This document shows, one piece after another, positions 25,074-44,855 of a stretch of 64,000 nucleotides of DNA (its first letter is position 1; every line of letters starts with the position of its first letter). The stretch comes from an uncultured Erysipelotrichaceae bacterium. Its GTDB lineage: Bacteria > Bacillota_I > Bacilli_A > RF39 > UBA660. The notes below the pieces were generated by a model that made no database searches, was not told the origin of the DNA, and worked only from the letters and a program-made list of their open reading frames with translations. The translations under genes and the position numbers were made by a program. The stretch is from positions 1,080 through 65,079 of the forward strand of contig CACXGV010000001.1 in assembly GCA_902767375.1 (NCBI GenBank), written 5' to 3'.

Positions 25074-25096
25074 AAAAAAAAAGAGTTGTTACTCTT
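25074..25096 (-). terminator. intrinsic terminator after the stand-alone TasA-like gene
   Basis: AAGAGT / ACTCTT stem with loop TGTT, followed by a 9-nt U-run on the transcript. Confidence 0.5.
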
Positions 25097-25649: not shown

Positions 25650-25708
25650 ATCTATCACTCTCCAATATAATTTTACTAAATATTTATAAATAATTCAAGA
25701 ATAATAAT

Positions 25709-25728
25709 AAGAACACCTAAGTGTTCTT
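25709..25728 (-). terminator. hairpin at the end of the T4SS operon (after the coupling-protein gene)
   Basis: AAGAACAC / GTGTTCTT 8-bp stem with loop CTAA, overlapping the stop codon. The downstream tract is U-rich but interrupted. Confidence 0.5.
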
Positions 25729-28042
25729 ATTCATCTTCATTAAAGAAGTCATCATAATACTGATCATCAGTAACATCACCAACAATGACACTATCTTTAT
25801 CAATATTAACTACTGGTTCATCTGTAGTAGTATCATCATTCTTCATAAAATCATCAAACTTCTGAACAACAGTATTATCTAAAGTATCATAATCAACTTC
25901 ATCTTTAGGATGTACCTCTGTTTTTACTTCTTCTGAAGCATTTTGTTCTTTCTCTAAACGTTCTTGTTCTTCTAATTCAGCAATTTTAGCATCAATTCTT
26001 TTAACTAAACTATCAATATCAAATTTAGGAGTAACAGTCTTATTTTCAATAATCCTTTCAACTGGTTTTGCAGGTATATCCTGAACTACCGGACTAATCT
26101 TTTCAGTTTCTTCCACAGGTTCTTCATTTGCTACCTGTTGTTGTTCACCCGCAAAGTTAAATGGATTAAATAAATTAGCAAATGGTGAATTGTCTTCTTC
26201 TTTATCATTTATTAAAGATACAGGAGGAGCAATTGGAGTATCATCCTTTATTTCCTCTCTTTCAGGTTCAATAGTTGGTTTAGAATCTAAATTCTTATTA
26301 CCATCTAAAGCCTCAAATAACTTATTTCTTTTCTTAACTTTAACAAATTCTTTAATATCAAACATCTCAATTGGACGTTTTTCTCTTGCAACAAGTTCAC
26401 CTTTACCAAAAGCTGAAGTCCCCCAATCAATTTCATAGCTTGGTTTTAACTTAGTTCTAAAAGGATTTAATCTACTATGAAGGATAATAACTTCATTCAT
26501 CTCTAATTTTTGTAAATCACTAACTGTAATAAGTGGCGTAGATGCTGTTTTTTCTTTATCTTTAGATTTAACCTCACCACATAACTTACTAATTTCTTCT
26601 AAAGCCGCAAGTTCCGTCGTTAATAGATAAATTAAATTACCACAGTTACTTCTAATAGTTTCAGCATCTTCTTTACCATAAACATCATTTAACTGAGCAA
26701 AGTTCTGAACTATAAAAGTAAATCTTATTGAACGGCTTCTTGCTGCTGTAACCATTGTAGTAACATCTTTAAGTGGAGGCATATTTGCAAACTCATCTAA
26801 AATAAAATTAGTACGATATTTAAGTCTACCATTTGGTTCTTTTTGTGCAACTCCAATTAAAGTTTCATAAACTTGTTTAATGAAAATAGTAGCAAGCGCA
26901 TGATAGGTTGTTTTTTCATCTTGAACTATCATAAACACTGCTGTTTTTTCATTACCAATATCATTCATATTAAAATCACTATAAGAAAGCATTTCTGACA
27001 AATTCTCTCTTGTAGCAAATTGTCTAATCTTTGATCTAAATACTGATAAAATACTTCCCTTTGTTTCATTAGGAGCATTTATTGTATTATTAGCAAATGT
27101 ATAAGGAGTAGACTCCTCACCTTTTAAAGTAAAATATTCTTTAACATAATTACTAGTTGCAAAAGTATCTTCTCCTACAGTTGACATATAATTAACTGAG
27201 TTAATATTTATTTGTTCTTCCTTAGCATCTTCAAATAAACCTAATACTAAACCAGAAAAATAATCTGAAGAAGATTTTTCCCAGAATGGATCATTCTTAT
27301 TTTCTGGATCATACATAATATTTAAAGAAATATCTTCTAAAAGCTCAATTGCTTTATCAACATTTCCTGATTTATATAACTTATAAGGTAAAGTTAAAGG
27401 ATTCCAAGAATTCCCATATGCTGGATCTCTAAAGTTTAAAACAACTATTTTATATCCCTTAGCTCTAAGCATTTCTGAATGATTACGATAAATCTCACCC
27501 TTAGGGTCAGTCATAATCATACTTTCACCCTTCTTAGATAAACTATAAATTAAAGGATCTACTAGAGCCGTAGTTTTACCTGAACCAGTTTGCCCAACAA
27601 CTAAAGTATGATGATGTGCATTATCAACATACATATCTTTACCATCATTTATAACTACAATACCTGCTCCATCAGCAGTTTCAGCTTTAATTGGAACTCT
27701 TACTATTCCCGGAGCTTTTTTCATCTCTTGTGGTTTTAACCACCTACTATAACCCTTTTCTTCTTTTTCCTTAAAAGTAAGACCAAACCCCTTTGATCCC
27801 TTATCTCTTTCAAATATATAAGAAGAAACACTCATAAAAATTGCAATTAAAACTGCAAAGAATACCACTAAAGTTGGTATTAAATAAGGAGGTAAAAATC
27901 CTGCGAAAAAATTAAGTCCAAAAAATTCTGTAGAATCTAATAAAGATGTTACATTTAAAACTGCCAAAGATGACATAATAAGTAAAAAGATACAAAATAT
28001 AATAAATATTATTAGATCTTTAGGGGCTACTCTAAATTTCAT
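25727..28042 (-). CDS. type IV coupling protein (VirD4/TraG/TcpA-like ATPase)
   Basis: Two N-terminal TM segments, Walker A VVGQTGSGKTT, Walker B-like FILDEFANM, and a long acidic C-terminal tail. Confidence 0.85.
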   Translation of the reverse strand: MKFRVAPKDLIIFIIFCIFLLIMSSLAVLNVTSLLDSTEFFGLNFFAGFLPPYLIPTLVVFFAVLIAIFMSVSSYIFERDKGSKGFGLTFKEKEEKGYSRWLKPQEMKKAPGIVRVPIKAETADGAGIVVINDGKDMYVDNAHHHTLVVGQTGSGKTTALVDPLIYSLSKKGESMIMTDPKGEIYRNHSEMLRAKGYKIVVLNFRDPAYGNSWNPLTLPYKLYKSGNVDKAIELLEDISLNIMYDPENKNDPFWEKSSSDYFSGLVLGLFEDAKEEQININSVNYMSTVGEDTFATSNYVKEYFTLKGEESTPYTFANNTINAPNETKGSILSVFRSKIRQFATRENLSEMLSYSDFNMNDIGNEKTAVFMIVQDEKTTYHALATIFIKQVYETLIGVAQKEPNGRLKYRTNFILDEFANMPPLKDVTTMVTAARSRSIRFTFIVQNFAQLNDVYGKEDAETIRSNCGNLIYLLTTELAALEEISKLCGEVKSKDKEKTASTPLITVSDLQKLEMNEVIILHSRLNPFRTKLKPSYEIDWGTSAFGKGELVAREKRPIEMFDIKEFVKVKKRNKLFEALDGNKNLDSKPTIEPEREEIKDDTPIAPPVSLINDKEEDNSPFANLFNPFNFAGEQQQVANEEPVEETEKISPVVQDIPAKPVERIIENKTVTPKFDIDSLVKRIDAKIAELEEQERLEKEQNASEEVKTEVHPKDEVDYDTLDNTVVQKFDDFMKNDDTTTDEPVVNIDKDSVIVGDVTDDQYYDDFFNEDE

Positions 28043-28095
28043 CTAATCCCTCCTTGCACTACTAATTATATACTAAAATATGATTTTTTTCCACA

Positions 28096-28809
28096 TTAAT
28101 TATTAGAATTCTTTACTTTACCTAAAACAATTATTACCCCAAATAATAATGTGGCACCCAAAACCATAAAAACGATGTTAATAATACTATTTGATAGTTT
28201 ACTATCCCTTAACTTAGAATATTTACTTGTCTTATCAACTACTATATTAATAGTTTTATTCTCATAATTATTCTTAGTAAAAACCCAAGTATAAGTTTGA
28301 TCATTAACCGCATCAGCATTACTCTCTATTACTTGATAATAAGAAGTAACATTTATTGTTAACTTATCTAAATCAGGATAAGATTTAAATAAAGAATTAC
28401 CTTCTGGATTTCCACTACTAAAACTAAATCTATCCTTACTATTAGTAACACTACGATAATTAAAAGGTAGTAACAGATAAGTCTTTTCATACTTATCCAT
28501 ATCAAATGTATAAGTAAACCTTAATCCATATGCATCACTATTATCAATTTTTTCTTTATTATAATAATTATATCCATCTAATCTAGAAAACAACTCTGGA
28601 TATCCAGGAGTATCAGCATCAACTGCCAAATTAAAATTCTCATAATTATAATCTATCATTGCTTTATTAGTTATTTCACCATATTTTTTATTTAAAGCAT
28701 TAATAACTAATTCATCACTAATTGTTTTCTCATCAATTTTAACATTATAAACCGCTTCACAACCAGATAAAAGAAATACACTTATTATTAATAATAAAAT
28801 CTTTTTCAT
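28096..28809 (-). CDS. lipoprotein with additional C-terminal TM anchor (T4SS-associated)
   Basis: Lipobox LLSGC at residues 13-17; C-terminal IINIVFMVLGATLLFGVIIVLG. Confidence 0.6.
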   Translation of the reverse strand: MKKILLLIISVFLLSGCEAVYNVKIDEKTISDELVINALNKKYGEITNKAMIDYNYENFNLAVDADTPGYPELFSRLDGYNYYNKEKIDNSDAYGLRFTYTFDMDKYEKTYLLLPFNYRSVTNSKDRFSFSSGNPEGNSLFKSYPDLDKLTINVTSYYQVIESNADAVNDQTYTWVFTKNNYENKTINIVVDKTSKYSKLRDSKLSNSIINIVFMVLGATLLFGVIIVLGKVKNSNN

Positions 28810-28810
28810 A

Positions 28811-30676: not shown

Positions 30677-30700
30677 AGCTATTACTCCTTTCTAAAAATA

Positions 30701-31180
30701 CTAATAAATTCTAACTTTATAATTCATAATTGAAGATTCAACAAAACCATATTCATTGCCTATTGAATCCATCGCAAAATAAACTCTTTTACCATCTACC
30801 ATTTCATTAGAATAATTTCTAACTGTTGTAGTATAAAAACCTTTCTTTTGTTTTAAAGTATCTAAATAACTTTTAAAACTTTTATAACTATCAAACTTTT
30901 CAATTAAAGTTTCATCATCAAGCATTGTAAATGCTTTTTCTGGATCATTAATTAAAATATCCATAAATTCACTATAATATTTCTTAACAAGTTCTTCATC
31001 GGTAATATACACCGGTATTACTTCATTTACTTCATAATCTTTAAATTCAAAATCCTGTTTTAATACTCTTCCATTACTTCCATCATTTTCTTTAAATATA
31101 AATGATATTATTAATGGAACAAGTATAATAATAAGCCCGATTAAGAGAGGCCTTAAAGAGTTTTTTGAAAGTTCTTCCAT
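30701..31180 (-). CDS. TM-anchored T4SS-associated protein (VirB8-like position; unverified)
   Basis: 159 aa with an N-terminal TM and a ~120-aa soluble domain. TAATG overlap with the upstream gene. Confidence 0.4.
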   Translation of the reverse strand: MEELSKNSLRPLLIGLIIILVPLIISFIFKENDGSNGRVLKQDFEFKDYEVNEVIPVYITDEELVKKYYSEFMDILINDPEKAFTMLDDETLIEKFDSYKSFKSYLDTLKQKKGFYTTTVRNYSNEMVDGKRVYFAMDSIGNEYGFVESSIMNYKVRIY

Positions 31181-31692
31181 TATAATGCCTCCTTAAAATA
31201 CTTACCATCATATGGTTCAACACTAAATAAATTTTTTTTATTATCAATATTAACTATTAAATAATAATCTGAACCACCATCATATTCATTTATAAATTCT
31301 TTTTTCAATAATCCATAAATATAATACTTTGTAATACTTCCATTTTTAGAATAATACATCTTCCTAGCATTAAATGAATATAAATCATCTAATTCACCTA
31401 AATTCTTAATTAGATTACTTTTATTAAGATTATTATTATTAAGATATTGATTATCCACAATTTTCATTAAGTTATCCACATTTTTTTTGCTTAAATTTAA
31501 AATATATCTATTAGCACAACTTTCAACTGTAAAAAAAGTTGATTTTTCACTAACAAGAGCATATGATTCTTTAGTATTTTGCTGTTCTACAGCAAGTTCC
31601 TCTGCATCGCCTTTTCTTATTACAAAGAATAGACCGATAGCTAAAAGGGTGATAATCCCTATTAAAATATAATCTGTTTTATTTAATTTCAT
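31180..31692 (-). CDS. TM-anchored T4SS-associated protein (VirB8-like position; unverified)
   Basis: About 170 aa with an N-terminal TM and a ~130-aa soluble domain. ATG 31692 follows AAAGGTGAT. Confidence 0.4.
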   Translation of the reverse strand: MKLNKTDYILIGIITLLAIGLFFVIRKGDAEELAVEQQNTKESYALVSEKSTFFTVESCANRYILNLSKKNVDNLMKIVDNQYLNNNNLNKSNLIKNLGELDDLYSFNARKMYYSKNGSITKYYIYGLLKKEFINEYDGGSDYYLIVNIDNKKNLFSVEPYDGKYFKEAL

Positions 31693-31707
31693 AATTATCA
31701 CCTTTTT

Positions 31708-33759: not shown

Positions 33760-33778
33760 AGAAAACCACCTCTAACTA

Positions 33779-35569
33779 CTATAATCCTCCACCAGAACCA
33801 AAAGAGTCTAATTCTTCTGGAGTTAATACAACATTAATTCTCATACGTCTAGATCCACATACAAATAATGCTTCTCCTTGACTATAAGTCTTAATGCTTT
33901 CTTTTTCGTTTTCATTTAAATCTATAAGTCTAGATAAATCTTCTACTGCTTGTTTTCTTAACCCCATTACTAAATAGTAAGAAGCATTATCAAAAATAGC
34001 TTTACCATGAACAAATACATTCTCAGCAGCAAAATCTGTAGGTTGTTGAGTAATAATAATTGTACCTGTATTATACTTACGACTTCTTCTTTGAACTTGA
34101 GCTAAGAATTCCGCTCCTAATTCATTTTTAGCAGATAAAAGTACATGTGCTTCATCCACATACATTACTGTATTAATAGATTTATCTAAGCATAAACCCC
34201 AAGCATATTTCAAAATATTAAAGAAAAGTGCATTACGAATATTTTCATCACTATTCATAAGCTCTCTAATATTAAATACAACAAAATTACTATCAGTTTC
34301 AATTGTAGTATGTCCATTAAAATAATATCTAAGTTCTAAAGTAAATGGTTTAATTCTAAGAGATAATCTTTCCATTACATCTTTTTCTCTAGTAGCTTCA
34401 GGCATAGATAATAATCTACCCTTAATAGTTGAGAAAACATCATCAAATGTTGGATAATCCGCAGATGTAAAAGTACTAAAATCTGTATCAAAATCTATAC
34501 CAAATCTCTTATAAGTTTCTAAACAAACTTCACTAAACATTTGAAGTACATCATCTTCAATAGAAGGATAATAATACTTAATAAATGCTTTTAAACTTTG
34601 AAGTGTTCTAGTTAAAACAGAATGAGCAGCTCCATCCTTAATTTCTTCTTCATCAGCATCAAAAATAACCTCAAGTGGATTAATCATTCCAAAGTCTCCA
34701 CCCTTACCTAAATCGATAAAGTTTCCACCATAATTCTTAACCATATCCTCAAGCTCACCTTCAGGATCGATAGCAATTATCTTACAATTATTTCTAATGT
34801 GAGTACGAAGTAATAACTTAGCAGCAGTTGATTTACCAGAACCGGATGTACCTAAGATAATAATATTTGCATTATTTCTATTAAACTCTTTTCTTGTTTG
34901 ATATAAGAACTGATTAAATAAAACTACTCCACCAGAGAAATCTATACCAAGAAGAGTTGCACTTCCAGGATCTTTTATACTATCAAATACAAAAGGATAC
35001 ATAGCCGCTATAGTTGGACTTGGAATAGGTGTTCCTACTCTCTCTTCAATATCTTGTTTAGGGAAAATAGGAATCATTGATTTAAGAACTTTTTCTTGTT
35101 CAAACATCATTGGAATTCCACGCATTTCCATTGCATCTAAATAATTTCTAACTTGAATCTTTTTACTTTCTAATTCTTCTTTAGTATCTGCTGTAATCAT
35201 AATATGCATTTGAAAATCATATATCTTTGATTGTGTAGCAGCAAGCATTTGAACAAAAGATTCTAAAGATTCATAATCTTGACGTATTCTTTCTTGAATA
35301 GTTCTTTCATGTTCATTTTGATACCTTTGTTTTAAATCAGCAACTTCCTTATCTATCATTCTACTCATTGTAGAAAAATTAATTGGAATATGTTTAACAA
35401 CAACTTTAACCCCTGGAATATTAGTAACATTTGCTAAAAATCCAGGACCTATAACTTTAGGGAAACTAATAATAGTAAGAATAGTAGCATATTTATCACT
35501 AATCATAAAATCATTAATATTAAAGTTAATTCCTTTAGGAGCTATTTCACTTTTAAATGTACTACTCAT
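33779..35569 (-). CDS. VirB4-like T4SS ATPase, C-terminal 596-aa part (split gene)
   Basis: Walker A GTSGSGKST and Walker B VMYVDEAHVLL. Separated from the N-terminal part by a 7-bp tandem duplication. Confidence 0.85.
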   Translation of the reverse strand: MSSTFKSEIAPKGINFNINDFMISDKYATILTIISFPKVIGPGFLANVTNIPGVKVVVKHIPINFSTMSRMIDKEVADLKQRYQNEHERTIQERIRQDYESLESFVQMLAATQSKIYDFQMHIMITADTKEELESKKIQVRNYLDAMEMRGIPMMFEQEKVLKSMIPIFPKQDIEERVGTPIPSPTIAAMYPFVFDSIKDPGSATLLGIDFSGGVVLFNQFLYQTRKEFNRNNANIIILGTSGSGKSTAAKLLLRTHIRNNCKIIAIDPEGELEDMVKNYGGNFIDLGKGGDFGMINPLEVIFDADEEEIKDGAAHSVLTRTLQSLKAFIKYYYPSIEDDVLQMFSEVCLETYKRFGIDFDTDFSTFTSADYPTFDDVFSTIKGRLLSMPEATREKDVMERLSLRIKPFTLELRYYFNGHTTIETDSNFVVFNIRELMNSDENIRNALFFNILKYAWGLCLDKSINTVMYVDEAHVLLSAKNELGAEFLAQVQRRSRKYNTGTIIITQQPTDFAAENVFVHGKAIFDNASYYLVMGLRKQAVEDLSRLIDLNENEKESIKTYSQGEALFVCGSRRMRINVVLTPEELDSFGSGGGL

Positions 35570-36426: not shown

Positions 36427-36436
36427 TTATTCCTCC

Positions 36437-36856
36437 TTATTTTAATATATCCCTTCTAAAATCAGCTTCAGCTACTCTTTGTAAAGCAATTTTATAATTT
36501 GTATAAAAATCATCTATCTTTCTTGCTTGAACTATCATTCCAAGCCTAGATGCAAAATCACTATTATCCATTAATAGTTTTCTTAATGATGATATTTTTT
36601 CATTAAAGAATCCAGGACTTACCATAGCTACTTTTTCTTTAATGAAATCAAATATTTTTTTATCATAATCATCATTAACTTCTTTAACATACTCATCATA
36701 GAATGGAGAGTCTTTAAATTCTCTTCTTAAATCAATTAAGGCATATTCTCGATAAGTTTCAAACATTTCAATATCATCACTATCATCAGAATAATTAACT
36801 ATTGTTAAAAACTCTCCCACATATGAACTACAAAACTCATATTCTTTAGTTTCCAT
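36437..36856 (-). CDS. hypothetical acidic cytoplasmic protein (T4SS-associated)
   Basis: 139-aa ORF with a TAATG overlap onto the virB6-like gene. Confidence 0.45.
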   Translation of the reverse strand: METKEYEFCSSYVGEFLTIVNYSDDSDDIEMFETYREYALIDLRREFKDSPFYDEYVKEVNDDYDKKIFDFIKEKVAMVSPGFFNEKISSLRKLLMDNSDFASRLGMIVQARKIDDFYTNYKIALQRVAEADFRRDILK

Positions 36857-39735
36857 TATTTGCTACCTCCTTTGCCTTCAGCAGCCTTATCAGCGGCAGC
36901 ATCAATTTTATCAACAAATTTTGCTCTAAACGCACCACGAACTTCCTCTTCTTTGATACCATCTAAGAAGCCGCGGATTTGTTTTAATTCTTCAACTGTA
37001 TATTTTGTACTATCATCCTTAGAACGAACAATTTGACACAATTTATTAAATTCCTCACCCAAATTAAGAGGAACAGGTGATCCATCTGGATTCATAGTAG
37101 TTACTCCAGCTCTTTCTAAAATCCTTCTTTGAGAAGCTTCAGTTAAAGCTGTGAATTCATCACGAAGTTCGCCACTATTAGCAATCATATAAGCACGAAG
37201 ATCATCCTTAACCTTTTCTAAGTTGCCAATAATCTTTTCATCTACTTCACGCTTAGTTCTATCATCAATTTCTTTCTTTTCTTCTTCATATATGGTCTTA
37301 AGTTCAGTTTTGCGTCTTTCTAATTCAGCAAGTTCTTTACCAATATCAGTTTTTTCAAGTTCTTTTTTCTCAGCTTCTAGTACCATAGCCTCACGAGCAC
37401 CAGAATCAATCTCTAACGCAGCTAATTTAGTATCAATGTCATTAATTTTAGCACCAAATTCAGTAGCATTTAATTCATCTCTTCTAACTTTCATTTCAGC
37501 AGTAAACTTAGTTTTTTCCGTTTCTAAATCAGATAATTTAACTTGAGCTGCAGTTATTTGCGAATCGAGTCCTTTAATCTGTAAATCTTTTTTTTCTGCA
37601 GTTAAAGTAGTATCTTTCCCGATTGCGACTTTTTGTGCTTCTAATGCACTAATTTCAGCAGTAATCTTAGATTTATCTACTTCATATCTAGTTCTGAAAT
37701 TTCTAGCATCAGTGCCAATAGCCTCATTAGTTCTTTTCCAAGCTTCAGCTTCAGGTGTGGCCATTAATCTAGATCTTTCAGCATTTAAAGTCGCAGCCTT
37801 TTCAGAAAAAGATTTATATGCCTCGCTACCATAAATCCTACCTAAATCTTCATCAATCTTTCTAAATCTTGTAGCATGCTCTTCATAGCCTTCTTGACTA
37901 CGTATCCTAGTCTCTTCTCTTCTTAAATTTAATCTTTCATTGTTATAGTATTCCGTAAGACTAGCTTTTTCATTTTTAGCACGATCTTTAATTTCTTGAA
38001 CACCTTTTTGAATAGAATCAGAATTAACAATTGGATTAATTTTCTTTCTAAATTTACCGGCTTTATCAGCATTTTCACCTACACTAGTATAATTAATTCG
38101 GTTCCCAAAATAATTTTGTGGTCCGCCCTCTTGAGCAATTGCATCACTAAAATCATCAAATTTAAGTGCAAGCCCTCTTAAACCAGGAACACGATATGCC
38201 ACATTACCTGGATGTTTACTACTTGCTTCAGCAAAACGTTTTCTTTTAGCATCTCGTTTATCTATAGCCTCAAAAGTTTCAGATGAAGATTTCTTTATTT
38301 CTTTACCTAAATTTTTCAAATCTCCTCCGCTATTTTGCCATCCACGGTATCCACCATGTAAAACAGTTCTTGGAAGGTTACCTATTGCACGGCCAGCTTG
38401 TCTCCATCTATCTTTTACTGGTCGAGAAGAATATGTTCCATCAGCATTTCTTTGATTAAAAATATTAAATCCTTCTCTACCTAGATTTCTAGCTGCGGTG
38501 CCAAGTGCACCAATTCCACGTCTTGCATATTCATAATCTTCACCATTAAGTTTTTTGCCAATTCTCCATTCACCCTTAGCAAAACCACCAACAATACTGT
38601 CTAAAAGTTTAGGGGCAGTTTTGGCAAATTGTAAAATACTTATATACATAATTGCTTTAACAATTAATCTTGTTAAAGAAATATTTGATACATAATCTTT
38701 ATCAATCATGTTCCAGAAATGTCCATTATCTCTAATAAAAGACATTGTATATATAGCAAAATAAATAGTTGCAACACGGACAAATACTAACAAATAAGTA
38801 CTTTTAATTTCATTAAACCACTTAGTAAATATACCACCTGTTGGTTTTGTAATTCTTAAAATAATTGGTATTGGAGCAACAATTTCCAATACTGCTAATT
38901 TAACCGCTCTAGCTCCTACATCAAAGGCAAATGATAAGAATAAATATGCCGAAAATAGACCTAAAGCCATTGCCCATAGCCAGTGATATTCCATCGTCCC
39001 ATCAGTAACTGCTTGATTTAGTTCAGGATCTAGGAAGAATAAACTTAAAAATCCATGATCCATTGCTAAATCATATTTTTCAATATAGTGATCACATAGA
39101 GTTTTTAAATCTCCTTCAATTCCTTCTCCTGAACGGCACTCTGCAGGAGTAACGGCAATTTTAACATCCGGATTATCTGGATCTTGAGATACAGGATGAA
39201 AGAAGGTTGAAAATATTGAAACTGCTACTCTAAAACCTGCATCTTTTGTATCAATCTTTCCGTTTTTCTTAAAATCGTTGTGACTATCTTCTTCTGTCGT
39301 ACTACTCATTAAAATAATATTACCAATGATATTAGATTCTAATATACGATTTTCAACTCTATCAATTGTATCATAAATAAAAGGTAAGAGTGCAATTAAT
39401 ACAATTGAAATAACTGTATTCTTAGCAAGGCCCTTTAATGATTTATCATCATTTGCTCCTACTTTATCTGGATCAGCAATTAATCTTAATACACTAATAG
39501 CAAGAACAAATAACATTACAACCCCTAAGACAACGTAAATTCTCTTAGTAATTGCCCCTATTCCATCTGGATCATTAACATCAAAAATTCTAGCTCTTGT
39601 AACAATATAAAAAATACGATACATATAACCAGTAATATTATAAATAAGTGCATTTATAAGTAATGTAATTCCTCTTAAAGTATTTAAGACAAAATCACCT
39701 ATGTTAAATAATTTTAAAGCAACAATATTTGTCAC
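36856..39735 (-). CDS. VirB6-like polytopic membrane protein with long C-terminal coiled coil (TcpH/ConG/PrgH analog)
   Basis: 959 aa. Multiple TM helices in the first ~400 aa, then a charged coiled-coil region. Its position next to the VirB3/VirB4 genes supports the call. Confidence 0.6.
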   Translation of the reverse strand: MTNIVALKLFNIGDFVLNTLRGITLLINALIYNITGYMYRIFYIVTRARIFDVNDPDGIGAITKRIYVVLGVVMLFVLAISVLRLIADPDKVGANDDKSLKGLAKNTVISIVLIALLPFIYDTIDRVENRILESNIIGNIILMSSTTEEDSHNDFKKNGKIDTKDAGFRVAVSIFSTFFHPVSQDPDNPDVKIAVTPAECRSGEGIEGDLKTLCDHYIEKYDLAMDHGFLSLFFLDPELNQAVTDGTMEYHWLWAMALGLFSAYLFLSFAFDVGARAVKLAVLEIVAPIPIILRITKPTGGIFTKWFNEIKSTYLLVFVRVATIYFAIYTMSFIRDNGHFWNMIDKDYVSNISLTRLIVKAIMYISILQFAKTAPKLLDSIVGGFAKGEWRIGKKLNGEDYEYARRGIGALGTAARNLGREGFNIFNQRNADGTYSSRPVKDRWRQAGRAIGNLPRTVLHGGYRGWQNSGGDLKNLGKEIKKSSSETFEAIDKRDAKRKRFAEASSKHPGNVAYRVPGLRGLALKFDDFSDAIAQEGGPQNYFGNRINYTSVGENADKAGKFRKKINPIVNSDSIQKGVQEIKDRAKNEKASLTEYYNNERLNLRREETRIRSQEGYEEHATRFRKIDEDLGRIYGSEAYKSFSEKAATLNAERSRLMATPEAEAWKRTNEAIGTDARNFRTRYEVDKSKITAEISALEAQKVAIGKDTTLTAEKKDLQIKGLDSQITAAQVKLSDLETEKTKFTAEMKVRRDELNATEFGAKINDIDTKLAALEIDSGAREAMVLEAEKKELEKTDIGKELAELERRKTELKTIYEEEKKEIDDRTKREVDEKIIGNLEKVKDDLRAYMIANSGELRDEFTALTEASQRRILERAGVTTMNPDGSPVPLNLGEEFNKLCQIVRSKDDSTKYTVEELKQIRGFLDGIKEEEVRGAFRAKFVDKIDAAADKAAEGKGGSK

Positions 39736-39750
39736 TAAACAGCCTCCTTT

Positions 39751-40647: not shown

Positions 40648-40685
40648 ATTAACTACCTCGAATTTCACACAATTATACATTAAAC

Positions 40686-40694
40686 ATTATATCA
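40686..40694 (-). promoter_or_regulatory. extended -10 element upstream of the Cys-rich virB2-paralog/virB6 operon
   Basis: The minus strand reads TGATATAAT directly after the terminator. A second TGTATAAT lies 9 nt further downstream. Confidence 0.4.
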
Positions 40695-40721
40695 TAAAAA
40701 AAAACAACCTACAAGGTTGTT
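40695..40721 (-). terminator. intrinsic terminator directly after the 126-aa VirB2-like gene
   Basis: AACAACCT / AGGTTGTT 8-bp stem with loop ACA, and a 9-nt U-run on the transcript. Confidence 0.7.
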
Positions 40722-40738
40722 TTCATACATATTTTTAA

Positions 40739-41119
40739 TTATTGAATGCAGCCGTCGGCACCTTTAGTCCAAGGTCTTAAAATGCAAGCTTCACATACAT
40801 TGAAATCCATTGATTCTTCTAGACCGTTTCTTTCAGAACTATAATTACTTACAGCGCCGAAAATAAACATTACGATACTAGGAATAAAGAAAATAACAAT
40901 ACCTGCTATAGCTCTCCACATTAGACTCTTAACAGATTTTTTAATTTCATCGTCTTTAGCTGCAGTAACTGCCTTACCAAAATCAAAAATACCATAAACA
41001 ATAATTAATAATGGAATAGCAATTTTAAATACAGTTAATATCCAACCTACTAATTGAAGGATTCCTGAAGCTTCTGAACAAAAATTACTTACATCAATAC
41101 CATCTAATATAGTAAACAT
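40739..41119 (-). CDS. VirB2/TrbC-like small 2-TM protein (candidate pilin/major subunit)
   Basis: 126 aa with two TM helices flanking DFGKAVTAAKDDEIKKSVKS and a Cys-containing tail. It has its own consensus promoter and its own terminator. Confidence 0.5.
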   Translation of the reverse strand: MFTILDGIDVSNFCSEASGILQLVGWILTVFKIAIPLLIIVYGIFDFGKAVTAAKDDEIKKSVKSLMWRAIAGIVIFFIPSIVMFIFGAVSNYSSERNGLEESMDFNVCEACILRPWTKGADGCIQ

Positions 41120-41142
41120 AATCCCACTCCTTACATATATTC

Positions 41143-41171
41143 ATTTTATATTATTTCCGCGTCAAAGTCAA
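41143..41171 (-). promoter_or_regulatory. sigma-A-type promoter dedicated to the 126-aa VirB2-like gene
   Basis: The minus strand reads TTGACT, a 17-nt spacer, then TAAAAT, followed by SD AAGGAG. Confidence 0.55.
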
Positions 41172-41173
41172 CA

Positions 41174-42205
41174 TTATTTGAATAAACCAAATAAACCTCC
41201 ACCGCTCTTAAATTTATCAAAACCTAGTTTAATTAATAACTCATCAACGGCTTTATTTCTACTACTTCTTTCATCGATATTTCCTAAAATATGAAAAACT
41301 TTTAATTTAGTCTCATATTCAAAACTAGGTATATCAGTATCAATCAAAGAACACCTATTAAGTACAATTCTTGCATTATCTCCCATAATTCTAGAATAAT
41401 CCTGATTACTAGTTAATAGTTTAGTTAAACTAACTATCCCGGGCTCCACTAAAAATAATACAAAATCGCATAAATCATTTGCCTTAATAGTATTTAAATC
41501 AATAATCACCGCTTGTTTATCTTTAAATGATTTAATCTTAAATTTCAAATCATCATATGATGTACTTTCACAAATATCTGGATCTCTAAAATATAATGCA
41601 TCTTGGTTAATCATCTCAACCCCTACTGCACTATAATAATTTCTTAACTCTTTAACCATCATATACATCAAACTAGTAGCCCCCGCATGAGGAGTTAAAT
41701 CCTGAATTCCAATAATTATCTGATTAGGATTTTTAACAACTTTATTTTCATTTACATTAGTACTTTTACTAATATCTCCAAACGGATTAAAAGAACTACT
41801 AGTAGTATCTTCTGTTAATGGATTTTGAAAACTATTAACAATAATATACTTTTCTACATCTTTTAAAGTATTAGGATGCGTAGTTAAAAAATTAATACCT
41901 CCGACATTCTTAGTAAAATCATAATATCCATTTTGCACTAACTTAGAAATACATTCCTTAGTAGTATTATTATCTAAAAGTAAGATAACTTTTTCCTTTT
42001 CAAAATAACTTAAAAAATCAAAAAGTATATCAAAATCAGTATAATCTTTAATCGCCGTAATATCTATTATAACTTTACTATAATATAAATTTACTAATTG
42101 ATCATCTAAATCACCCTTGGTAAATTCACCATGTAAAGTTTTAATAACATTAACATCAATTCTATTTAAAAGAGCACTATTTAAATTTTCAATTAATAAA
42201 TTCAC
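41174..42205 (-). CDS. MinD/ParA-fold protein with degenerate P-loop and N-terminal receiver-like domain (TadZ/CpaE-like)
   Basis: IIIGIQDLTPHAGATSLMYMMVKEL sits where the deviant Walker A would be, but there is no Lys. Later FVLFLVEPG and RIVLNRC blocks are typical of the fold. GTG start. Confidence 0.35.
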   Translation of the reverse strand: MNLLIENLNSALLNRIDVNVIKTLHGEFTKGDLDDQLVNLYYSKVIIDITAIKDYTDFDILFDFLSYFEKEKVILLLDNNTTKECISKLVQNGYYDFTKNVGGINFLTTHPNTLKDVEKYIIVNSFQNPLTEDTTSSSFNPFGDISKSTNVNENKVVKNPNQIIIGIQDLTPHAGATSLMYMMVKELRNYYSAVGVEMINQDALYFRDPDICESTSYDDLKFKIKSFKDKQAVIIDLNTIKANDLCDFVLFLVEPGIVSLTKLLTSNQDYSRIMGDNARIVLNRCSLIDTDIPSFEYETKLKVFHILGNIDERSSRNKAVDELLIKLGFDKFKSGGGLFGLFK

Positions 42206-42219
42206 GCCATCATCTTCCT

Positions 42220-42654
42220 CTATAATTTGTCATTTGCAAAATACACTGCTTTACTCTCACCAGTAACAGGGAAAGTAAATAAACTACCAAATATTGGTAA
42301 ATCTAATTTAAAATAAACTGTAACATAATAATAAGTCTTTTTAAATGTTCCTTCACCTTTAGCTTTGGTAGAAACACAATATCTATACTTTTTTTGTCCA
42401 CCAACAAGTTCATCATAACCCTTGGCATCTTTACAGTTACCATAAACAAAATAACCATAACCGTCTAAATACTCACTAATTTCAGTTCTAGCTTTACTAT
42501 TCATACCTTCATTTTGTTCAATAATATTAATAATACCATTCTTAACTCTAAATGCTTTTGAATAGTTTACAGATACAGCTAAATAACCAGAAAAGAGCAC
42601 TATAAATACGATAACTATGGTAAATATCCACGCTCCACCAATTGCTTCTCTCAT
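42220..42654 (-). CDS. pseudopilin/TadE-like membrane-anchored protein
   Basis: MREAIGGAWIFTIVIVFIVLFSGYLAVSVNY: a short charged N-terminus, a Gly, and a ~20-aa hydrophobic helix. Confidence 0.3.
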   Translation of the reverse strand: MREAIGGAWIFTIVIVFIVLFSGYLAVSVNYSKAFRVKNGIINIIEQNEGMNSKARTEISEYLDGYGYFVYGNCKDAKGYDELVGGQKKYRYCVSTKAKGEGTFKKTYYYVTVYFKLDLPIFGSLFTFPVTGESKAVYFANDKL

Positions 42655-42666
42655 CTATAAGACTCC

Positions 42667-42915
42667 TTATTTATTATTTTGATTACATTGAACTGTGCCA
42701 GTTTTTGTACAAGCTTCATCTTCACAGTATTTGCAAGTACACATACCAGTACTAGCATTACAGTTATTACATTCGTAAGCTTGAGAACAATGAGTACTTC
42801 TTAGAATGTTTGCCTTAATTGATGGCCATACTAATGTTGTAAACACCACCCCTATAGCAGCAATTGCTACAACTGCAATAGCAGTCATACTTAATTCTCC
42901 AGATGCTTCTTTCAC
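42667..42915 (-). CDS. Flp-like small pilin candidate with Cys-rich C-terminal knot
   Basis: MKEASGELSMTAIAVVAIAAIGVVF resembles Flp leader/core sequences (ESG..TAI..). The C-terminal 40 aa hold 8 Cys. GTG start 9 nt after AGGAGG. First gene behind a consensus promoter. Confidence 0.35.
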   Translation of the reverse strand: MKEASGELSMTAIAVVAIAAIGVVFTTLVWPSIKANILRSTHCSQAYECNNCNASTGMCTCKYCEDEACTKTGTVQCNQNNK

Positions 42916-42950
42916 TTTTACATTCCTCCTATTCTTATAATCATAATATC

Positions 42951-42979
42951 ATTATACCTCATTAATTTCAATCTATCAA
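42951..42979 (-). promoter_or_regulatory. consensus sigma-A-type promoter of the Flp-like/TadE-like/TadZ-like operon
   Basis: The minus strand reads TTGATA, a 17-nt spacer, then TATAAT, followed by AGGAGG and the GTG start. Confidence 0.6.
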
Positions 42980-42990
42980 TTATCTTTTTA

Positions 42991-43015
42991 CAAAAAAATA
43001 GCACCAAAGTGCTAT
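42991..43015 (-). terminator. intrinsic terminator after the cadherin-like surface-protein gene
   Basis: ATAGCAC / GTGCTAT 7-bp stem with loop CAAA, and a 7-nt U-run on the transcript. Confidence 0.6.
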
Positions 43016-44607
43016 TCATAATCATAGTTTTTATCACTCTTTGCAGGTACTACTTTTCCTAATAATTTAAAGCCAAATACTGCTGCAATGCCTAAAACAA
43101 TTGCTCCGATAACATACAATATTACATTAGTTGATTTAATAATATTTATAGTATATATGTTTTCTTCCCCGTTTAAAGCTGTGACTTTTATTCTAACTGT
43201 TGATTTATTCTTAAGATGGGCATTTCCTAAAATAACATATTCAGCTTCTTCATTATCTAATTCAACCTCAATATTTAATTTATCATCACGATTCTTAAGT
43301 TTTAATTTATAATCATTTACATTAGGATTAAAATTAATTTTATATCCATCAATCTTAATACTTTTAATTAAATTATTTCCTTCTTCTTCCTCATTGATTC
43401 CAAACTTAATATTAATAACATAAAGTTTAGTACTTCCATCTTCAGCTGTAACTGTAACTGTAATTGGTTTGATATCTGAAATATCCTTATTATTAGCAAT
43501 TTCAACCTTAGCTTTTTCAGATTCAGCAGTAGCCGTTACAACAATATCTTTAGTACCTTTTGGTACTTCAATAGTATAAGTAGTAGTATCTTTATTAAAC
43601 TCTAACTTACCAATATCTACCTTTAATTCTTTTAAATAACTATTAGTATCTAAAACTGGTCCATTATACTTAATATTAATAGTATATGTTCTAGATGATC
43701 CACTTTCAGATGTAACAACAATTTTAATCGGATTTTCCTCATTAAAATTATCATTATTTAAAACAGATACTTTTGCTTTACTAGATTCAGCCTTAGCATT
43801 TACATCTATTTTAGTAACATCTCTATCAATATTAATAGTATATTCAGTAGTATTTTTATTAAATTCAATTGTTCCTTGAGACAAACTTAAACTACTTAAA
43901 TAATTATTAGTATCTTTACTTGGAGTAGATGAACCACCACTACTCTTAAATTTAACACTAATTAAATATGTTCTAGTAGAACCATTTTCTGCAATAACAG
44001 TTACAGAAATTGGAGTATTTTCACTAATATTTTTATTATTATTAATTGAAATAGTAGCTCTATTGGATTCAGCAGTTGCTGAAACAGTAACATTCTTAGT
44101 TCCTTTTGGTACCTCTATTTGATAAGCAATCGTATTCTTATTAAATCTAATAGATCCAGGAGATACCTTTAAACTCTTTAAATAATTATTAGTATCTAAA
44201 GTACTGGTTCCTCCACCACCACCCATATAAGTAGTACCATCTTTATTCTTATCGCAATCATACATAACAACTAAAGAGCAGTATTTAACATCTGTTCTAG
44301 GAGTACATGATCCGCTATACTGATCACAACCACTTCTAATTGTCTTAACATAATAATTCCTATTTCCATTAGAACATGAAACCATATCACTAGATATATA
44401 ATATTCTTGTTTCCATTCTCCTGTATAACAACTAGCTCTCTTACATTGTCCGATATATCCTTGACCAGAAGCATTAACTAAATTATCTTGAAAATTAATA
44501 CATCCATTATAACCAATATCATTTCCAACTGGTGTACTAGAATTAGCACCCCAAACAACAACAGGCCACATAAAAGCAAGGCCTAAAACTATCCATAATT
44601 TCTTCAT
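43012..44607 (-). CDS. surface protein: Cys-rich N-domain, four cadherin-like beta-sandwich repeats, C-terminal TM
   Basis: Repeats of the type NNYLKSLKVSPGSIRFNKNTIAYQIEVPKGTKNVTVSATAES...STRTYLISVKF. ATG 44607 follows AGAGGTG. Confidence 0.7.
   Translation of the reverse strand: MKKLWIVLGLAFMWPVVVWGANSSTPVGNDIGYNGCINFQDNLVNASGQGYIGQCKRASCYTGEWKQEYYISSDMVSCSNGNRNYYVKTIRSGCDQYSGSCTPRTDVKYCSLVVMYDCDKNKDGTTYMGGGGGTSTLDTNNYLKSLKVSPGSIRFNKNTIAYQIEVPKGTKNVTVSATAESNRATISINNNKNISENTPISVTVIAENGSTRTYLISVKFKSSGGSSTPSKDTNNYLSSLSLSQGTIEFNKNTTEYTINIDRDVTKIDVNAKAESSKAKVSVLNNDNFNEENPIKIVVTSESGSSRTYTINIKYNGPVLDTNSYLKELKVDIGKLEFNKDTTTYTIEVPKGTKDIVVTATAESEKAKVEIANNKDISDIKPITVTVTAEDGSTKLYVINIKFGINEEEEGNNLIKSIKIDGYKINFNPNVNDYKLKLKNRDDKLNIEVELDNEEAEYVILGNAHLKNKSTVRIKVTALNGEENIYTINIIKSTNVILYVIGAIVLGIAAVFGFKLLGKVVPAKSDKNYDYE
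43138..44199 (-). repeat. four cadherin-like beta-sandwich domain repeats (~83 aa each), coding
   Basis: Repeat boundaries at about residues 140-223, 236-317, 322-405 and 413-493 of the track ORF. Confidence 0.65.
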
Positions 44608-44624
44608 AAAAAACACCTCTAAGA

Positions 44625-44855
44625 TTAAATTTCTTGAAATACGTTCTTTTTATTAAGAATATATAAAACTGCTCCTAAACTAACTGAAACAGCACCTAAA
44701 GTAATAAAATAATCTTCTACCCCTGTATCTGGACTCTTTTCTATATTAGAAGTTGTCGTAGTTGTACTTGTAGTAGTATTTTCATCTTCTTCAGCTGCCA
44801 TAACCATTATAGGCATCATAAACAATACTAATATCATCACTAATATTTTCTTCAT
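44625..44855 (-). CDS. 76-aa mini sortase substrate (signal peptide, ~24-aa acidic/Thr-rich segment, SPDTG sorting signal)
   Basis: MKKILVMILVLFMMPIMVMA / AEEDENTTTSTTTTTSNIEK / SPDTG followed by a hydrophobic stretch and KKN. Has its own consensus promoter and SD AGGAGG. Confidence 0.55.
   Translation of the reverse strand: MKKILVMILVLFMMPIMVMAAEEDENTTTSTTTTTSNIEKSPDTGVEDYFITLGAVSVSLGAVLYILNKKNVFQEI

Follow-up and report, generated by a model that had tools for sequence, protein, structure and literature searches.

A probably domesticated type IV secretion system fixed in the chromosomes of uncultured small-genome gut Bacilli

The DNA analyzed here is a stretch of 64,000 nt (contig CACXGV010000001.1, assembly GCA_902767375.1; hereafter the window, whose positions serve as coordinates throughout), in which 18 open reading frames (ORFs), all on the minus strand and every one intact, are tightly packed across 25727-44855. 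This cluster encodes the complete and evolutionarily constrained parts list of a monoderm type IV secretion system (T4SS), with a type IV coupling protein (T4CP), VirB2-like pilins, and adhesin candidates among its products (Table 1). In all likelihood, it is an MPF-FATA-like (MPF, mating-pair formation) T4SS that a clade of uncultured gut Bacilli with small genomes has fixed in its chromosomes as an organelle and inherits vertically, and is neither an integrative and conjugative element (ICE) nor a decaying remnant. We favor a domesticated, functional T4SS over an ICE or a remnant because the gene order is conserved, the catalytic motifs are intact, the ratios of nonsynonymous to synonymous substitution (dN/dS) are low, and VirB4 co-diverges with RmuC, a housekeeping protein encoded downstream. 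An initial annotation of the window had counted about 17 co-directional genes; the shared direction was borne out, the count is 18, and a separate TrsD-like ORF had been overlooked.

Conservation, selection, and descent

In a VirB4 survey with one genome per species, 237 stretches encoded a relative of the window's VirB4, and locus comparisons were made with the best 80 of these 237, which were 72-92% identical. These 80 are metagenome-assembled genomes (MAGs) labelled uncultured Bacilli, Tenericutes, or Erysipelotrichaceae, and come from human, rabbit, ruminant, deer, and chicken guts. The cluster is present in at least 80 species-level genomes, and probably in about 237. Some VirB4-bearing contigs are 1.15-1.22 Mb in length, the longest of them pointing to genomes of ~1.2 Mb. 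VirB4 has thousands of relatives in total; the top 120 are 84-100% identical and 589-604 amino acids (aa) long (nearly all 596-597 aa), and the named ones among them are Bacilli MAGs.

The gene order is conserved among these loci. An ATPase gene and two genes for polytopic proteins, or adhesin genes, come first, followed by the genes for the 82-, 144- (one or two copies), and 343-aa proteins (p82, p144, and p343) and the pilins, and then by those for VirB6, an optional small protein, VirB3, TrsD, VirB4, varying hydrolases, an optional NTF2-like pair, the lipoprotein, and T4CP. T4CP was found in 45 of the 52 related loci with at least 9 kb downstream of VirB4, and 35 of these 45 also carry rhodanese or rmuC within the fetched stretch. 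Housekeeping genes flank the cluster in every arrangement seen (dnaI; rhodanese-TVP38-rmuC; infC-rpmI-rplT upstream; gltX and glmM downstream; whiA downstream), and the intact clusters with other flanks show that the cluster moved as a block.

The catalytic motifs and substitution patterns indicate sustained selection. Walker A and Walker B are intact in all 81 VirB4 sequences, and Walker A of T4CP is intact in 50 of 54. By the Nei-Gojobori method applied to six close pairs (RmuC in three of those pairs), dN/dS was 0.01-0.10 for VirB4 and 0.04-0.16 for T4CP, compared with 0.03-0.10 for RmuC, so that the ATPases are constrained as strongly as RmuC. Values were 0.23-0.61 for the VirB6-like protein, 0.26-0.74 for the 621-aa protein, and 0.2-0.7 for the hydrolases and the lipoprotein, every gene of the cluster staying below 1. 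Identity among relatives is 50-92% for the cytoplasmic parts and falls to 20-45% for the envelope parts. These selection data contradict the reading of the cluster as a very old, inactive ICE remnant persisting by chance, which we find hardly credible. The lack of mobility genes, together with a Tad-like module that in the window's lineage has no ATPase and platform genes at the locus, would agree with decay, but the 18 intact ORFs with orthologues intact across 80 species, the motifs kept in every VirB4 sequence, the dN/dS values, and the retention of the cluster in ~1.2 Mb genomes would not. The initial annotation had offered a domesticated secretion, pilus, or adhesion machine or an old remnant, rather than an active ICE; the domesticated machine and the rejection of an active ICE stand, whereas the remnant does not.

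Vertical descent is indicated by the pairwise identities of VirB4 and RmuC across 13 genomes, which were strongly correlated (Spearman 0.89, reached by none of 2000 Mantel permutations), VirB4 being the more conserved of the two (79% vs 68%). An identity gap lies outside the clade: a single 50%-identity cluster stands for the clade (70% identical to the query), two representatives are 42-44% identical, and other full-length relatives are at most 34% identical. Named VirB4 relatives belong to Thomasclavelia ramosa, Solobacterium, and a Mycoplasmatota plasmid; the closest of them, those of the Thomasclavelia element and the plasmid, are 31-34% identical. The nearest mobile relatives (the Thomasclavelia ICE, the Mycoplasmatota plasmid, and Bacillus thuringiensis plasmids) are ~30-34% identical. 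No VirB4 above about 30% identity was found among the PLSDB plasmids.

Mobility of the cluster

Domain scans agreed with the initial annotation that no relaxase, recombinase, or transposase lies in or beside the island: no relaxase, integrase/recombinase, or transposase domain was detected in any of the 18 ORFs of the island, in the flank ORFs that had no annotation, or in the 10 kb past the window's high end, and the remaining flank ORFs and those 10 kb read as housekeeping. Among the hallmarks of an ICE, the cluster has the mating-pair-formation genes and a coupling protein (VirB4, VirB6-like, VirB3-like, hydrolases, and T4CP), and within the searched region it has no relaxase, no recombinase, and no att repeats at a tRNA gene. 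The 64-kb window contains no tRNA gene at all. Comparison of the borders (24780-25760 vs 44600-45000), where the initial annotation had suggested looking for att-like repeats, gave no common word of 11 nt or longer and one common 10-mer, with 3.6 expected. SSB (single-stranded DNA-binding protein), primase, and partition genes were not found in the cluster search. A patchy distribution or atypical composition is not seen either, since VirB4 co-diverges with RmuC and the GC content (30.1% in the island vs 28.1% elsewhere) and third-position GC (GC3; 14.5% vs 13.5%) match the flanks, in line with the likeness in base composition noted in the initial annotation.

It is very improbable that the cluster is an ordinary, still mobile ICE or integrated plasmid, with its relaxase, oriT, and recombinase outside the examined stretch or too divergent. 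Such an element would account for the parts list of a conjugation system, for the T4CP score above the NCBI conjugal CD1115 threshold, and for the nearest named relatives, all of which are on mobile elements; this lineage is moreover often without a recognizable relaxase though mobile, as in Mycoplasma ICEs (PMC6030558) and plasmid CP074574.1, and 16 of 39 related loci have rmuC without the cluster beside it. It would not account for the same gene order and housekeeping flanks in 80 species, the co-divergence of VirB4 with RmuC, the fully ameliorated composition, the lack of border repeats, a tRNA gene, a recombinase, and SSB, primase, and partition genes, or plasmid relatives of at most about 30% identity. 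In addition, the differing sites have rearranged core neighbors (TVP38 and rhodanese missing; an IS110 transposase nearby) and do not resemble a clean empty site.

Several observations weigh against a domesticated, vertically inherited system. A comparison of the dnaI-to-rmuC interval, proposed in the initial annotation, gave a divided answer in a reverse survey, an RmuC-anchored search of metagenome contigs with 39 loci having at least 5 kb upstream of rmuC: T4CP was upstream in 23 of the 39 and not there in the other 16, and the dnaI-to-rmuC position is not universal. In one lineage (loci L090-L099), with an RmuC 83% identical to that of the window, the cluster is not at rmuC; PBP2B, asnA, mraY, ftsW, and an AAA protein precede rmuC, and rhodanese and TVP38 are missing too. 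Locus L103 has an IS110 transposase at the breakpoint before TVP38-rmuC. The differing rmuC sites look like chromosomal rearrangements, not clean empty sites; the cluster may not be present in every lineage, and the absences from the rmuC site may be due to loss or relocation. T4CP is lacking near VirB4 in 7 of the 52 loci, and the VirB8 assignment of the 173-aa protein is weak. The two polytopic proteins of the relatives gave no Pfam or NCBIfam match and matched no T2SSF model, and a TadB/TadC-like paralogy between them (families c18 and c20) was unsupported (hhalign probability, 3%). A relaxase may also be encoded elsewhere in the genome, as may the Tad ATPase and platform proteins, the relaxase search having covered the window and 10 kb past its high end.

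Some of these loci have further features, read from translations. In L103, an IS110-type transposase (7849-9048) abuts TVP38, and a large serine recombinase (924-2591) interrupts a penicillin-binding protein gene. In L098, a relative without the cluster beside rmuC, an AbiEi/AbiEii-like pair is encoded upstream (658-2136).

Translocon core

Pfam and NCBIfam searches upheld the VirB4, VirD4, and VirB6 assignments of the initial annotation, VirB6 by way of its pooled family. The VirD4-like coupling ATPase matched Pfam T4SS-DNA_transf (1e-52), as well as TraG-D_C and TrwB_AAD_bind, and exceeded the cutoff of NCBIfam conju_CD1115 (300 bits vs 250). The VirB4 ATPase ORF matched NCBIfam Mbov_0397 (4.7e-102) and CD1110 (4e-53) in addition to AAA_10. 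The N-terminal domain of VirB4 is encoded by the separate TrsD-like ORF, which matched positions 98-280 of the Mbov_0397 model (1.2e-15) and PF26593 TraC-like, and this arrangement was found in 80 of 80 related loci. A separately encoded VirB4 N-domain is the TrsD of pGO1-type systems and Patescibacteria (PMC12102498). A frameshift or pseudogene as the origin of the split VirB4 was considered and rejected, because the split is kept in all 80 loci and matches the TrsD arrangement.

The VirB6-like, VirB3-like, and VirB2-like assignments became convincing after orthologues from related genomes had been pooled, and those of the VirB6-like and VirB3-like proteins hold at the family level, the window copies alone scoring below cutoffs. 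At that level, the VirB3/PrgI-like, VirB6-like, and VirB2-like proteins named in the initial annotation were all recovered. The VirB3-like family, present in 75 loci, matched TcpE in 7 and PrgI in 4 members, and its hidden Markov model (HMM) matched the ORF before VirB4 in the Thomasclavelia ICE (2.5e-17) and plasmid CP074574.1 (3e-11). In the VirB6-like family (n=46), TrbL_4 matched 16 members (best, 1e-12), TrbL/VirB6 5, Mbov_0396 30, MMCAP2_0566 26, and pLS20_p028 10; the profile of this family returned coiled-coil noise alone from PDB sequences. Between the VirB6-like and VirB3-like genes lies the gene for a 139-aa cytoplasmic protein, whose position is occupied in relatives by divergent proteins of similar size (families c41 and c53). 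The best family matches would place the system in an MPF-FATA-like class.

The Mbov_0397 model also matched 16 members, not identified individually, of a mixed set (A4), and we infer that these are VirB3-like proteins at model positions 1-97 because the N-domain ORF covers 98-280 and the ATPase ORF covers 295-890. If so, the 894-position model of the single mycoplasma CDS17 would correspond to three consecutive ORFs here (109 + 185 + 596 aa). Against the Mbov equivalog models, the window proteins scored 342.2 (cutoff, 590), 18.9 (cutoff, 70), and 17.2 (cutoff, 40); they are homologues, not members, of the Mbov_0395, Mbov_0396, and Mbov_0397 families because all scores are below the equivalog cutoffs.

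Table 1. Features of the cluster and its borders, in window positions (TM, transmembrane; pLDDT, AlphaFold2 confidence)
Feature	Position	Strand	Remarks
189-aa secreted protein, TasA/SipW-type signal	25089..25658	-	Adjoins the cluster; membership uncertain; weak Peptidase_M73 match (5e-4)
Terminator-like hairpin	25706..25731	-	End of T4CP gene; 11-pair stem, detected on both strands
T4CP, VirD4-type, 771 aa, acidic C-terminal tail	25727..28042	-	Last gene of the cluster
Lipoprotein, 237 aa, lipobox LSGC, C-terminal TM segment	28096..28809	-	Read from sequence
Putative second wall hydrolase, 621 aa	28811..30676	-	Charged cytoplasmic N-terminus, TM, extracellular region ending NlpC/P60-like
Bitopic protein, 159 aa	30701..31180	-	Paralogue of the 173-aa protein
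Bitopic protein, 173 aa, NTF2-like ectodomain	31180..31701	-	Candidate VirB8 analogue; AlphaFold2 pLDDT 83
Secreted wall hydrolase, 683 aa, M23 peptidase and phage lysozyme	31708..33759	-	Pfam 9.5e-24 and 1e-5, both above cutoff
VirB4 ATPase, 596 aa, GTSGSGKS and DEAH motifs	33779..35569	-	Pfam AAA_10, P-loop_TraG
TrsD-like VirB4 N-terminal domain, separate ORF, 185 aa	35562..36119	-	8-nt overlap with the ATPase ORF
VirB3-like protein, two TM, 109 aa	36097..36426	-	Family matches TcpE, PrgI
Cytoplasmic protein, 139 aa	36437..36856	-	Between VirB6-like and VirB3-like genes; no Pfam/NCBIfam family match
VirB6-like polytopic channel protein, 959 aa, long C-terminal coiled-coil low-complexity extension	36856..39735	-	TrbL_4 3.9e-5 (window copy)
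Long VirB2-like pilin, 309 aa	39751..40680	-	Signal peptide, ~200-aa Cys-rich extracellular domain, C-terminal VirB2-like hairpin
Terminator-like hairpin	40724-40700	-	After short pilin gene
Short VirB2-like pilin, 126 aa, two-helix hairpin and Cys-containing tail	40739..41119	-	PF18895 T4SS_pilin 0.0035
Promoter-like site	41171-41143	-	Before short pilin gene
Two-domain cytoplasmic protein, 343 aa	41174..42205	-	N-terminal alpha/beta domain and ParA/MinD-like domain, degenerate P-loop (IIGIQDLTPHAGAT)
Membrane-anchored protein, 144 aa, two invariant Cys	42220..42654	-	TadE/TadF position; basis, position alone
Pilin-like protein, 82 aa	42667..42915	-	Nearly invariant MKEAsGE leader, hydrophobic helix, Cys-rich tail (32-member alignment)
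Promoter-like site	42979-42951	-	11 of 12; before 82-aa gene
Terminator-like hairpin	43017-42996	-	After cadherin-like gene
Cadherin-like surface protein, 534 aa	43012..44616	-	Signal peptide, Cys-rich head, at least 3 cadherin-like beta-sandwich repeats, C-terminal TM anchor
Secreted Thr-rich peptide, 76 aa, C-terminal SPDTG sortase-like motif and membrane anchor	44625..44855	-	First gene of adhesin pair; read from sequence
Promoter-like site	44911-44883	-	Before 76-aa peptide gene

Pilins, wall hydrolases, and surface proteins

Both VirB2-like pilins fall into one BLAST cluster with 178 members in 61 loci (1-8 copies per locus). Among the 58 loci with at least 6 kb upstream, 45 had 2-8 copies, 8 had one, and 5 had none, and the paralogues within a locus share a mean identity of 35%, all with at least two Cys. 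PF18895 matched 27 of 50 family members (best, 5e-7), CagC 3, and Mbov_0395 7, and the window copy of the short pilin matched the NCBIfam Mbov_0395 pilin-like model (0.0031). By its features, the short protein is probably the major pilin, and the long one would be a pilin displaying a head domain. In a rabbit-gut subclade, the locus holds 6-8 pilin genes but neither T4CP nor hydrolases. In five loci of rabbit-gut MAGs (L028, L033, L036, L038, and L042), an engB/ysxC GTPase gene, read from sequence, lies inside the array of 6-8 pilins upstream of VirB6, and gltX and glmM follow VirB4 in place of the hydrolases and T4CP.

Two TM-anchored proteins had been placed in the VirB8 position by the initial annotation. 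They are indeed paralogous, TM-anchored, NTF2-like proteins (families A6 and A7 in hhalign: probability 93%, E 2.9e-7), while the likeness to VirB8 is faint: the model of the 173-aa protein consists of a TM helix and an NTF2-like alpha+beta domain, and its top Foldseek matches include the VirB8 proteins CagV and TrwG with E values of 0.02-0.2 and TM-scores of 0.34-0.46. The sequence profiles of both proteins found nothing relevant among PDB sequences.

The two wall hydrolases had both been described as bifunctional. This holds for the 683-aa protein (M23 peptidase and lysozyme), a VirB1 analogue, whereas the 621-aa protein gave a borderline NlpC/P60 match (1.4e-4; 22.2 bits vs a cutoff of 23), and its bifunctionality was not borne out. 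Relatives carry other hydrolase mixes at the 683-aa position (M23, SpoIID with CHAP, NlpC/P60) and CHAP, NlpC/P60, M23, or SpoIID domains at the 621-aa position. The lipoprotein, already listed in the initial annotation, lies directly upstream of T4CP in 32 loci and matched no Pfam or NCBIfam family. The 534-aa cadherin-like protein (Pfam Cadherin-like, 7.2e-30 over 3 stretches) is a candidate adhesin; it occurs in 15 related loci at the place held in other species by the ATPase and platform genes. In 11 relatives, the place of the 76-aa peptide is held by related proteins with an NPKTG motif (c21).

Probable remnants of a Tad-like pilus module

The genes for the 82-, 144-, and 343-aa proteins, whose Tad-like nature the initial annotation had overlooked, appear to be leftovers of an accessory Tad-like pilus module, which relatives carry in full. 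In many relatives, they are preceded by genes for a T2SSE-family ATPase and two polytopic membrane proteins. This ATPase matched Pfam T2SSE (8.6e-26) and, as its best NCBIfam models, VirB11 (1.8e-34) and the TadA-family conjugal-transfer-associated ATPase (2.5e-27). By tblastn, none of these three genes was found in the 64-kb window, where the cadherin-like adhesin pair fills the place of the ATPase and platform genes.

The 82-aa protein may be the Flp-type subunit of this module. Its window copy has no Pfam match and its leader lacks the G/xxxxEY Flp motif, and the family HMM matched an 86-aa ORF that comes after T2SSF on plasmid CP074574.1 (6e-6). A gene for a prepilin peptidase was not seen. 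The 144-aa protein, present in 37 loci (one or two copies in relatives), matched no Pfam family in a 25-member alignment, and the Tad assignment of this protein and of the two polytopic proteins is positional only. The 343-aa protein (pLDDT 86.8) resembled BcsQ, ParF, ParA, and MinD in Foldseek (E 3e-5 to 5e-4); no Pfam family was found with 25 members, and no TadZ structure was among its top 50 Foldseek matches. We take its layout, an alpha/beta domain followed by a ParA/MinD-like domain, to be the TadZ/CpaE architecture. The family is limited to 118 clusters, of which the named ones are all "hypothetical" and all named taxa are Bacilli.

Plasmid CP074574.1 (97.9 kb), from the cold-seep Mycoplasmatota bacterium zrk4, carries the same composite: T4CP, a TrbL_4 protein, VirB3-like, and VirB4, followed by a SAF-domain protein, a CpaE-like AAA protein, CpaF, T2SSF, and small ORFs. 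The HMMs of our clade matched its CpaF (2e-22) as well as its VirB6-like, VirB3-like, VirB4, and T4CP proteins. The joining of a Tad-like module to this T4SS is thus older than the chromosomal cluster. With its T4CP, VirB4, VirB6-like protein, and full CpaE/CpaF/T2SSF module (seen in positions 1-50000 of the plasmid), it is typed as non-mobilizable by MOB-suite, no relaxase being recognized in it, which parallels the Mycoplasma ICEs.

Comparison with known systems

By sequence, the system appears closest to the Mycoplasma ICE module, and by lifestyle it would be closest to the chromosomal pilin-array T4SS of Patescibacteria. A chromosomal T4SS of Patescibacteria/Saccharibacteria was reportedly described by Wang et al. 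in 2023. The patescibacterial T4SS is chromosomal and relaxase-less, with VirB2-like pilin arrays, TrsD and VirB4, and a peptidase and a lysozyme downstream (Quinonero-Coronel et al. 2025, PMC12102498; PMC12857230). The present cluster resembles it in being monoderm, MPF-FATA-derived, and chromosome-fixed in reduced genomes with no relaxase nearby (here, in the searched region), in the TrsD-like ORF directly before virB4 and the peptidase and lysozyme directly after it, and in its tandem divergent VirB2-like pilins (two in the window, as many as 8 in relatives). It differs in its host, a member of the Bacillota, class Bacilli, and in its nearest named VirB4 relatives, which come from Erysipelotrichales/Mycoplasmatota elements, the best curated model being the Mycoplasma ICE VirB4 in a comparison made without Patescibacteria sequences. 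T4CP is in the cluster here (45 of 52 loci), whereas in Patescibacteria it is mostly far from virB4 and not essential. The NTF2-like VirB8 candidates and the Tad-like module are further differences.

With the Mycoplasma ICEs (ICEA/ICEB; CDS5, CDS15, CDS16, and CDS17), the cluster shares its best sequence matches, which are colinear (Mbov_0395, Mbov_0396/MMCAP2_0566, and Mbov_0397), a VirD4-type T4CP, and a lipoprotein, and no relaxase has been identified in those elements either (PMC6030558). Unlike them, it shows no DDE recombinase (CDS22, Mutator-like) in the window, no ParA-type CDSG, no multiple copies or random insertion, and it is vertically inherited; their single CDS17 would be represented by three ORFs in our cluster. 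The cluster further differs in having wall hydrolases and NTF2-like proteins, because its host is walled.

Plasmid CP074574.1 and the Thomasclavelia ramosa element have the same core of VirB6, VirB3, TrsD-like, VirB4, and hydrolase, and the plasmid likewise joins its T4SS to a CpaE-like/CpaF/T2SSF module with small ORFs in the pilin position. Both differ from our cluster in being mobile or extrachromosomal and in a VirB4 identity of about 31-34%. The Thomasclavelia element has a serine recombinase (Resolvase/Recombinase gene), SSB, Toprim, and sortase pili, and ParM and a topoisomerase are encoded on the plasmid. Neither gave a match to the HMMs of the VirB2-like pilins, p144, or p343, and no p82 homologue was found in the Thomasclavelia element.

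The resemblance to a Tad pilus lies in what the relatives encode: a T2SSE-family ATPase and two polytopic proteins, then a short pilin-like protein, one or two proteins in the TadE position, and one of TadZ/CpaE architecture. It stops at the window's lack of the ATPase and two polytopic genes, at the relatives' polytopic proteins and p144, which match no Tad family, at the leader without a Flp motif, and at the prepilin peptidase, which was not seen. The ComB system of Helicobacter pylori is conjugation machinery domesticated for DNA import without a relaxase. The archaeal Ced/Ted systems are likewise domesticated and relaxase-less, and reportedly have VirB2-like pilins, a VirB6-like protein, and VirB4-type ATPases (PMC9905601). 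Our cluster shares domesticated conjugation machinery without a relaxase with Ced/Ted and ComB, and differs from Ced/Ted in a distant sequence likeness and in its VirD4-type T4CP, wall hydrolases, and lipoprotein.

Possible assembly and substrate

The encoded parts list is what our analysis demonstrated; how the parts assemble and what they do are inferred from it. The membrane translocon would be built from the VirB6-like and VirB3-like proteins, the TrsD-like domain, VirB4, and both NTF2-like bitopic proteins, and the M23/lysozyme and NlpC/P60 enzymes would open the wall. VirB4 would pull VirB2-like pilins from the membrane and polymerise them into a pilus, one pilin bearing a Cys-rich head, and contact between cells could be made via the cadherin-like protein, the lipoprotein, and the pilin heads. 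T4CP would pass a substrate from the cytoplasm to the channel. In the ancestral mobile element, the full Tad-like module probably served to form mating pairs.

Two substrates are, by analogy, about equally likely, each falling somewhat short of an even chance. The first is DNA, moved without a recognizable relaxase as in the chromosomal transfer driven by Mycoplasma ICEs or in archaeal Ced-type import. DNA is suggested because the closest homologues are all conjugation machines and T4CP is syntenic and constrained, because the same T4SS lineage moves DNA in mycoplasmas without a recognized relaxase, chromosomal DNA included (PMC6030558, PMC12857230), and because even the related plasmid CP074574.1 is typed non-mobilizable. 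The second is protein, or some other cargo, passed on in an obligate interaction between cells, as has been proposed for the patescibacterial T4SS, and it is suggested because of the fixation in reduced genomes, the extreme conservation of VirB4, the divergent Cys-rich pilin arrays, the fast-evolving exposed parts, and the T4CP-less subclade. A role as a pilus or in adhesion only is unlikely.

In its strict form, the interaction role would make the system a near-essential, Patescibacteria-like apparatus that moves no DNA and serves attachment and protein or metabolite exchange with a bacterial host or the gut epithelium; we regard this as a serious candidate, if not a probable one. It would be consistent with chromosomal fixation in reduced genomes, with a VirB4 more conserved than a housekeeping protein, with arrays of 2-8 divergent Cys-rich VirB2-like pilins, with the fast evolution of every surface-exposed part, and with the rabbit-gut subclade, which has 6-8 pilins and neither T4CP nor hydrolases at the locus. 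The same combination is essential for epibiotic growth in Patescibacteria, where T4CP is dispensable (PMC12102498, PMC12857230). Against it stand the synteny of T4CP in 45 of 52 loci and its strong constraint, the closeness in sequence to DNA-conjugation systems, the lack of visible effector-like or toxin-immunity genes in the cluster, and the literature on these Bacilli, which records no epibiotic lifestyle.

A DNA-uptake machine, in which the conjugation apparatus has been reversed for import as in archaeal Ced/Ted or H. pylori ComB, is improbable. The missing relaxase would fit, as would the VirB2-like pilins, VirB6-like protein, and VirB4-type ATPases of the Ced/Ted parts list (PMC9905601), and there are weak NCBIfam matches to CedD (8.7e-11) and CedB (0.0039). 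These matches are, however, far weaker than those to the conjugative VirB4/VirD4 families, and the locus gives no sign of the direction of transport.

A bolder reading, speculative and on balance doubtful, is that the clade made a Mycoplasma-ICE-type apparatus with a VirB2-type pilus its own, as an organ by which cells exchange chromosomal DNA without a relaxase, oriT, or mobile element. If true, the cluster would be the equivalent of mycoplasma chromosomal transfer in a walled cell, fixed in the chromosome and kept by selection in ~1.2 Mb genomes, and the T4SSs of Mycoplasma ICEs or Patescibacteria might have arisen from a source of this kind.

Locus organization and neighboring genes

The window has a GC content of ~28%, and nearly all its genes are on the minus strand. 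As the initial annotation had it, the flanks are core genes: dnaB and dnaI upstream, and downstream a small secreted protein, rhodanese, a TVP38-family protein, rmuC, a 546-aa ORF, ftsE, and ftsX, all read from translations, with Pfam backing rhodanese. Spacing inside the cluster is tight, with two TAATG stop-start couplings, one overlap of 8 nt and another of 23 nt, and three gaps that are larger. Of the operon signals claimed earlier, the two TAATG couplings and three terminator-like hairpins were recovered, and an excess of promoters was not: promoter-like hexamer pairs are not enriched (122 vs 114 +/- 10 in shuffled sequence), and the three best minus-strand sites sit in the three larger intergenic gaps. 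This placement, with hairpins after the cadherin-like, short pilin, and T4CP genes, suggests four transcription units, namely the adhesin pair, an 82/144/343-aa unit, a pilin gene that has a promoter to itself and ends in a leaky terminator, and a long operon ending at T4CP. For the short pilin gene (40700-41171, minus strand), its own promoter-like site and a strong hairpin directly after it form a layout typical of highly expressed major pilins, with read-through into the assembly genes.

The 189-aa secreted protein follows T4CP in 12 relatives. It is one of four paralogues, all on the minus strand (25089-25658, 47279-49066, 16386-18632, and 62230-63873), that have in common an N-terminal domain (~170 aa) preceded by a TasA/SipW-type signal (..YAYFSARITG[LI]E..); the 189-aa protein stands alone, and the other three are large surface proteins, one with SFDTSNVT (BspA/DUF285-like) repeats. 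The 546-aa ORF between ftsE and rmuC (21532-23172, minus strand) belongs to no Pfam family and has two Rx4H motifs (RNSIAH and RNIFAH) as in HEPN nuclease domains, and a 28% identical homologue has the same position in L097. A short SSB (114 aa, PF00436; 56700-57044, minus strand), without an acidic C-terminal tail like the competence-type SsbB, is encoded between sufB and RNase J, ~12 kb from the cluster. At 58536-62157 (minus strand), an AAA ATPase (520 aa) and a 318-aa protein apparently share an N-terminal segment, as judged by eye, and a transglutaminase-like protein (361 aa) adjoins them. Sortase-type C-terminal motifs departing from LPXTG (SPDTG, NPSTG, and IPDTG), each followed by a TM segment and basic residues, end the products of 44625-44855, 49833-52184, and 52316-54076 (minus strand), which implies that the organism has a sortase. 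This may have a bearing on its order, because RFN20 and ML615J-28 have been reported without sortases (PMC10868615).

Significance

We found no prior description of this system, and the papers searched on RF39, RFN20, and ML615J-28, the candidate orders of the clade, made no mention of a T4SS. A domesticated monoderm T4SS is already known from Patescibacteria; this would be the second one with pilins, domesticated independently in another phylum, with an integral T4CP and a Tad-like module. According to a 2025 review, no Gram-positive T4SS outside Patescibacteria has VirB2-type pilins, and non-conjugative Gram-positive T4SSs are a long-standing question (PMC12857230). The "pilin-like" name of Mbov_0395 and the present cluster together suggest that such pilins are more widespread in Gram-positive T4SSs than the review states. 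The cluster also has a clear sequence link to the machinery of Mycoplasma ICEs, whose DNA-processing step is likewise unexplained. It occurs in abundant human and animal gut bacteria, for which at least 80 species-level genomes give comparative power, and it makes three questions testable: what a relaxase-less T4SS carries, how a VirB2 pilus passes through the Gram-positive wall, and how far reduced-genome gut Bacilli depend on contact with other cells.

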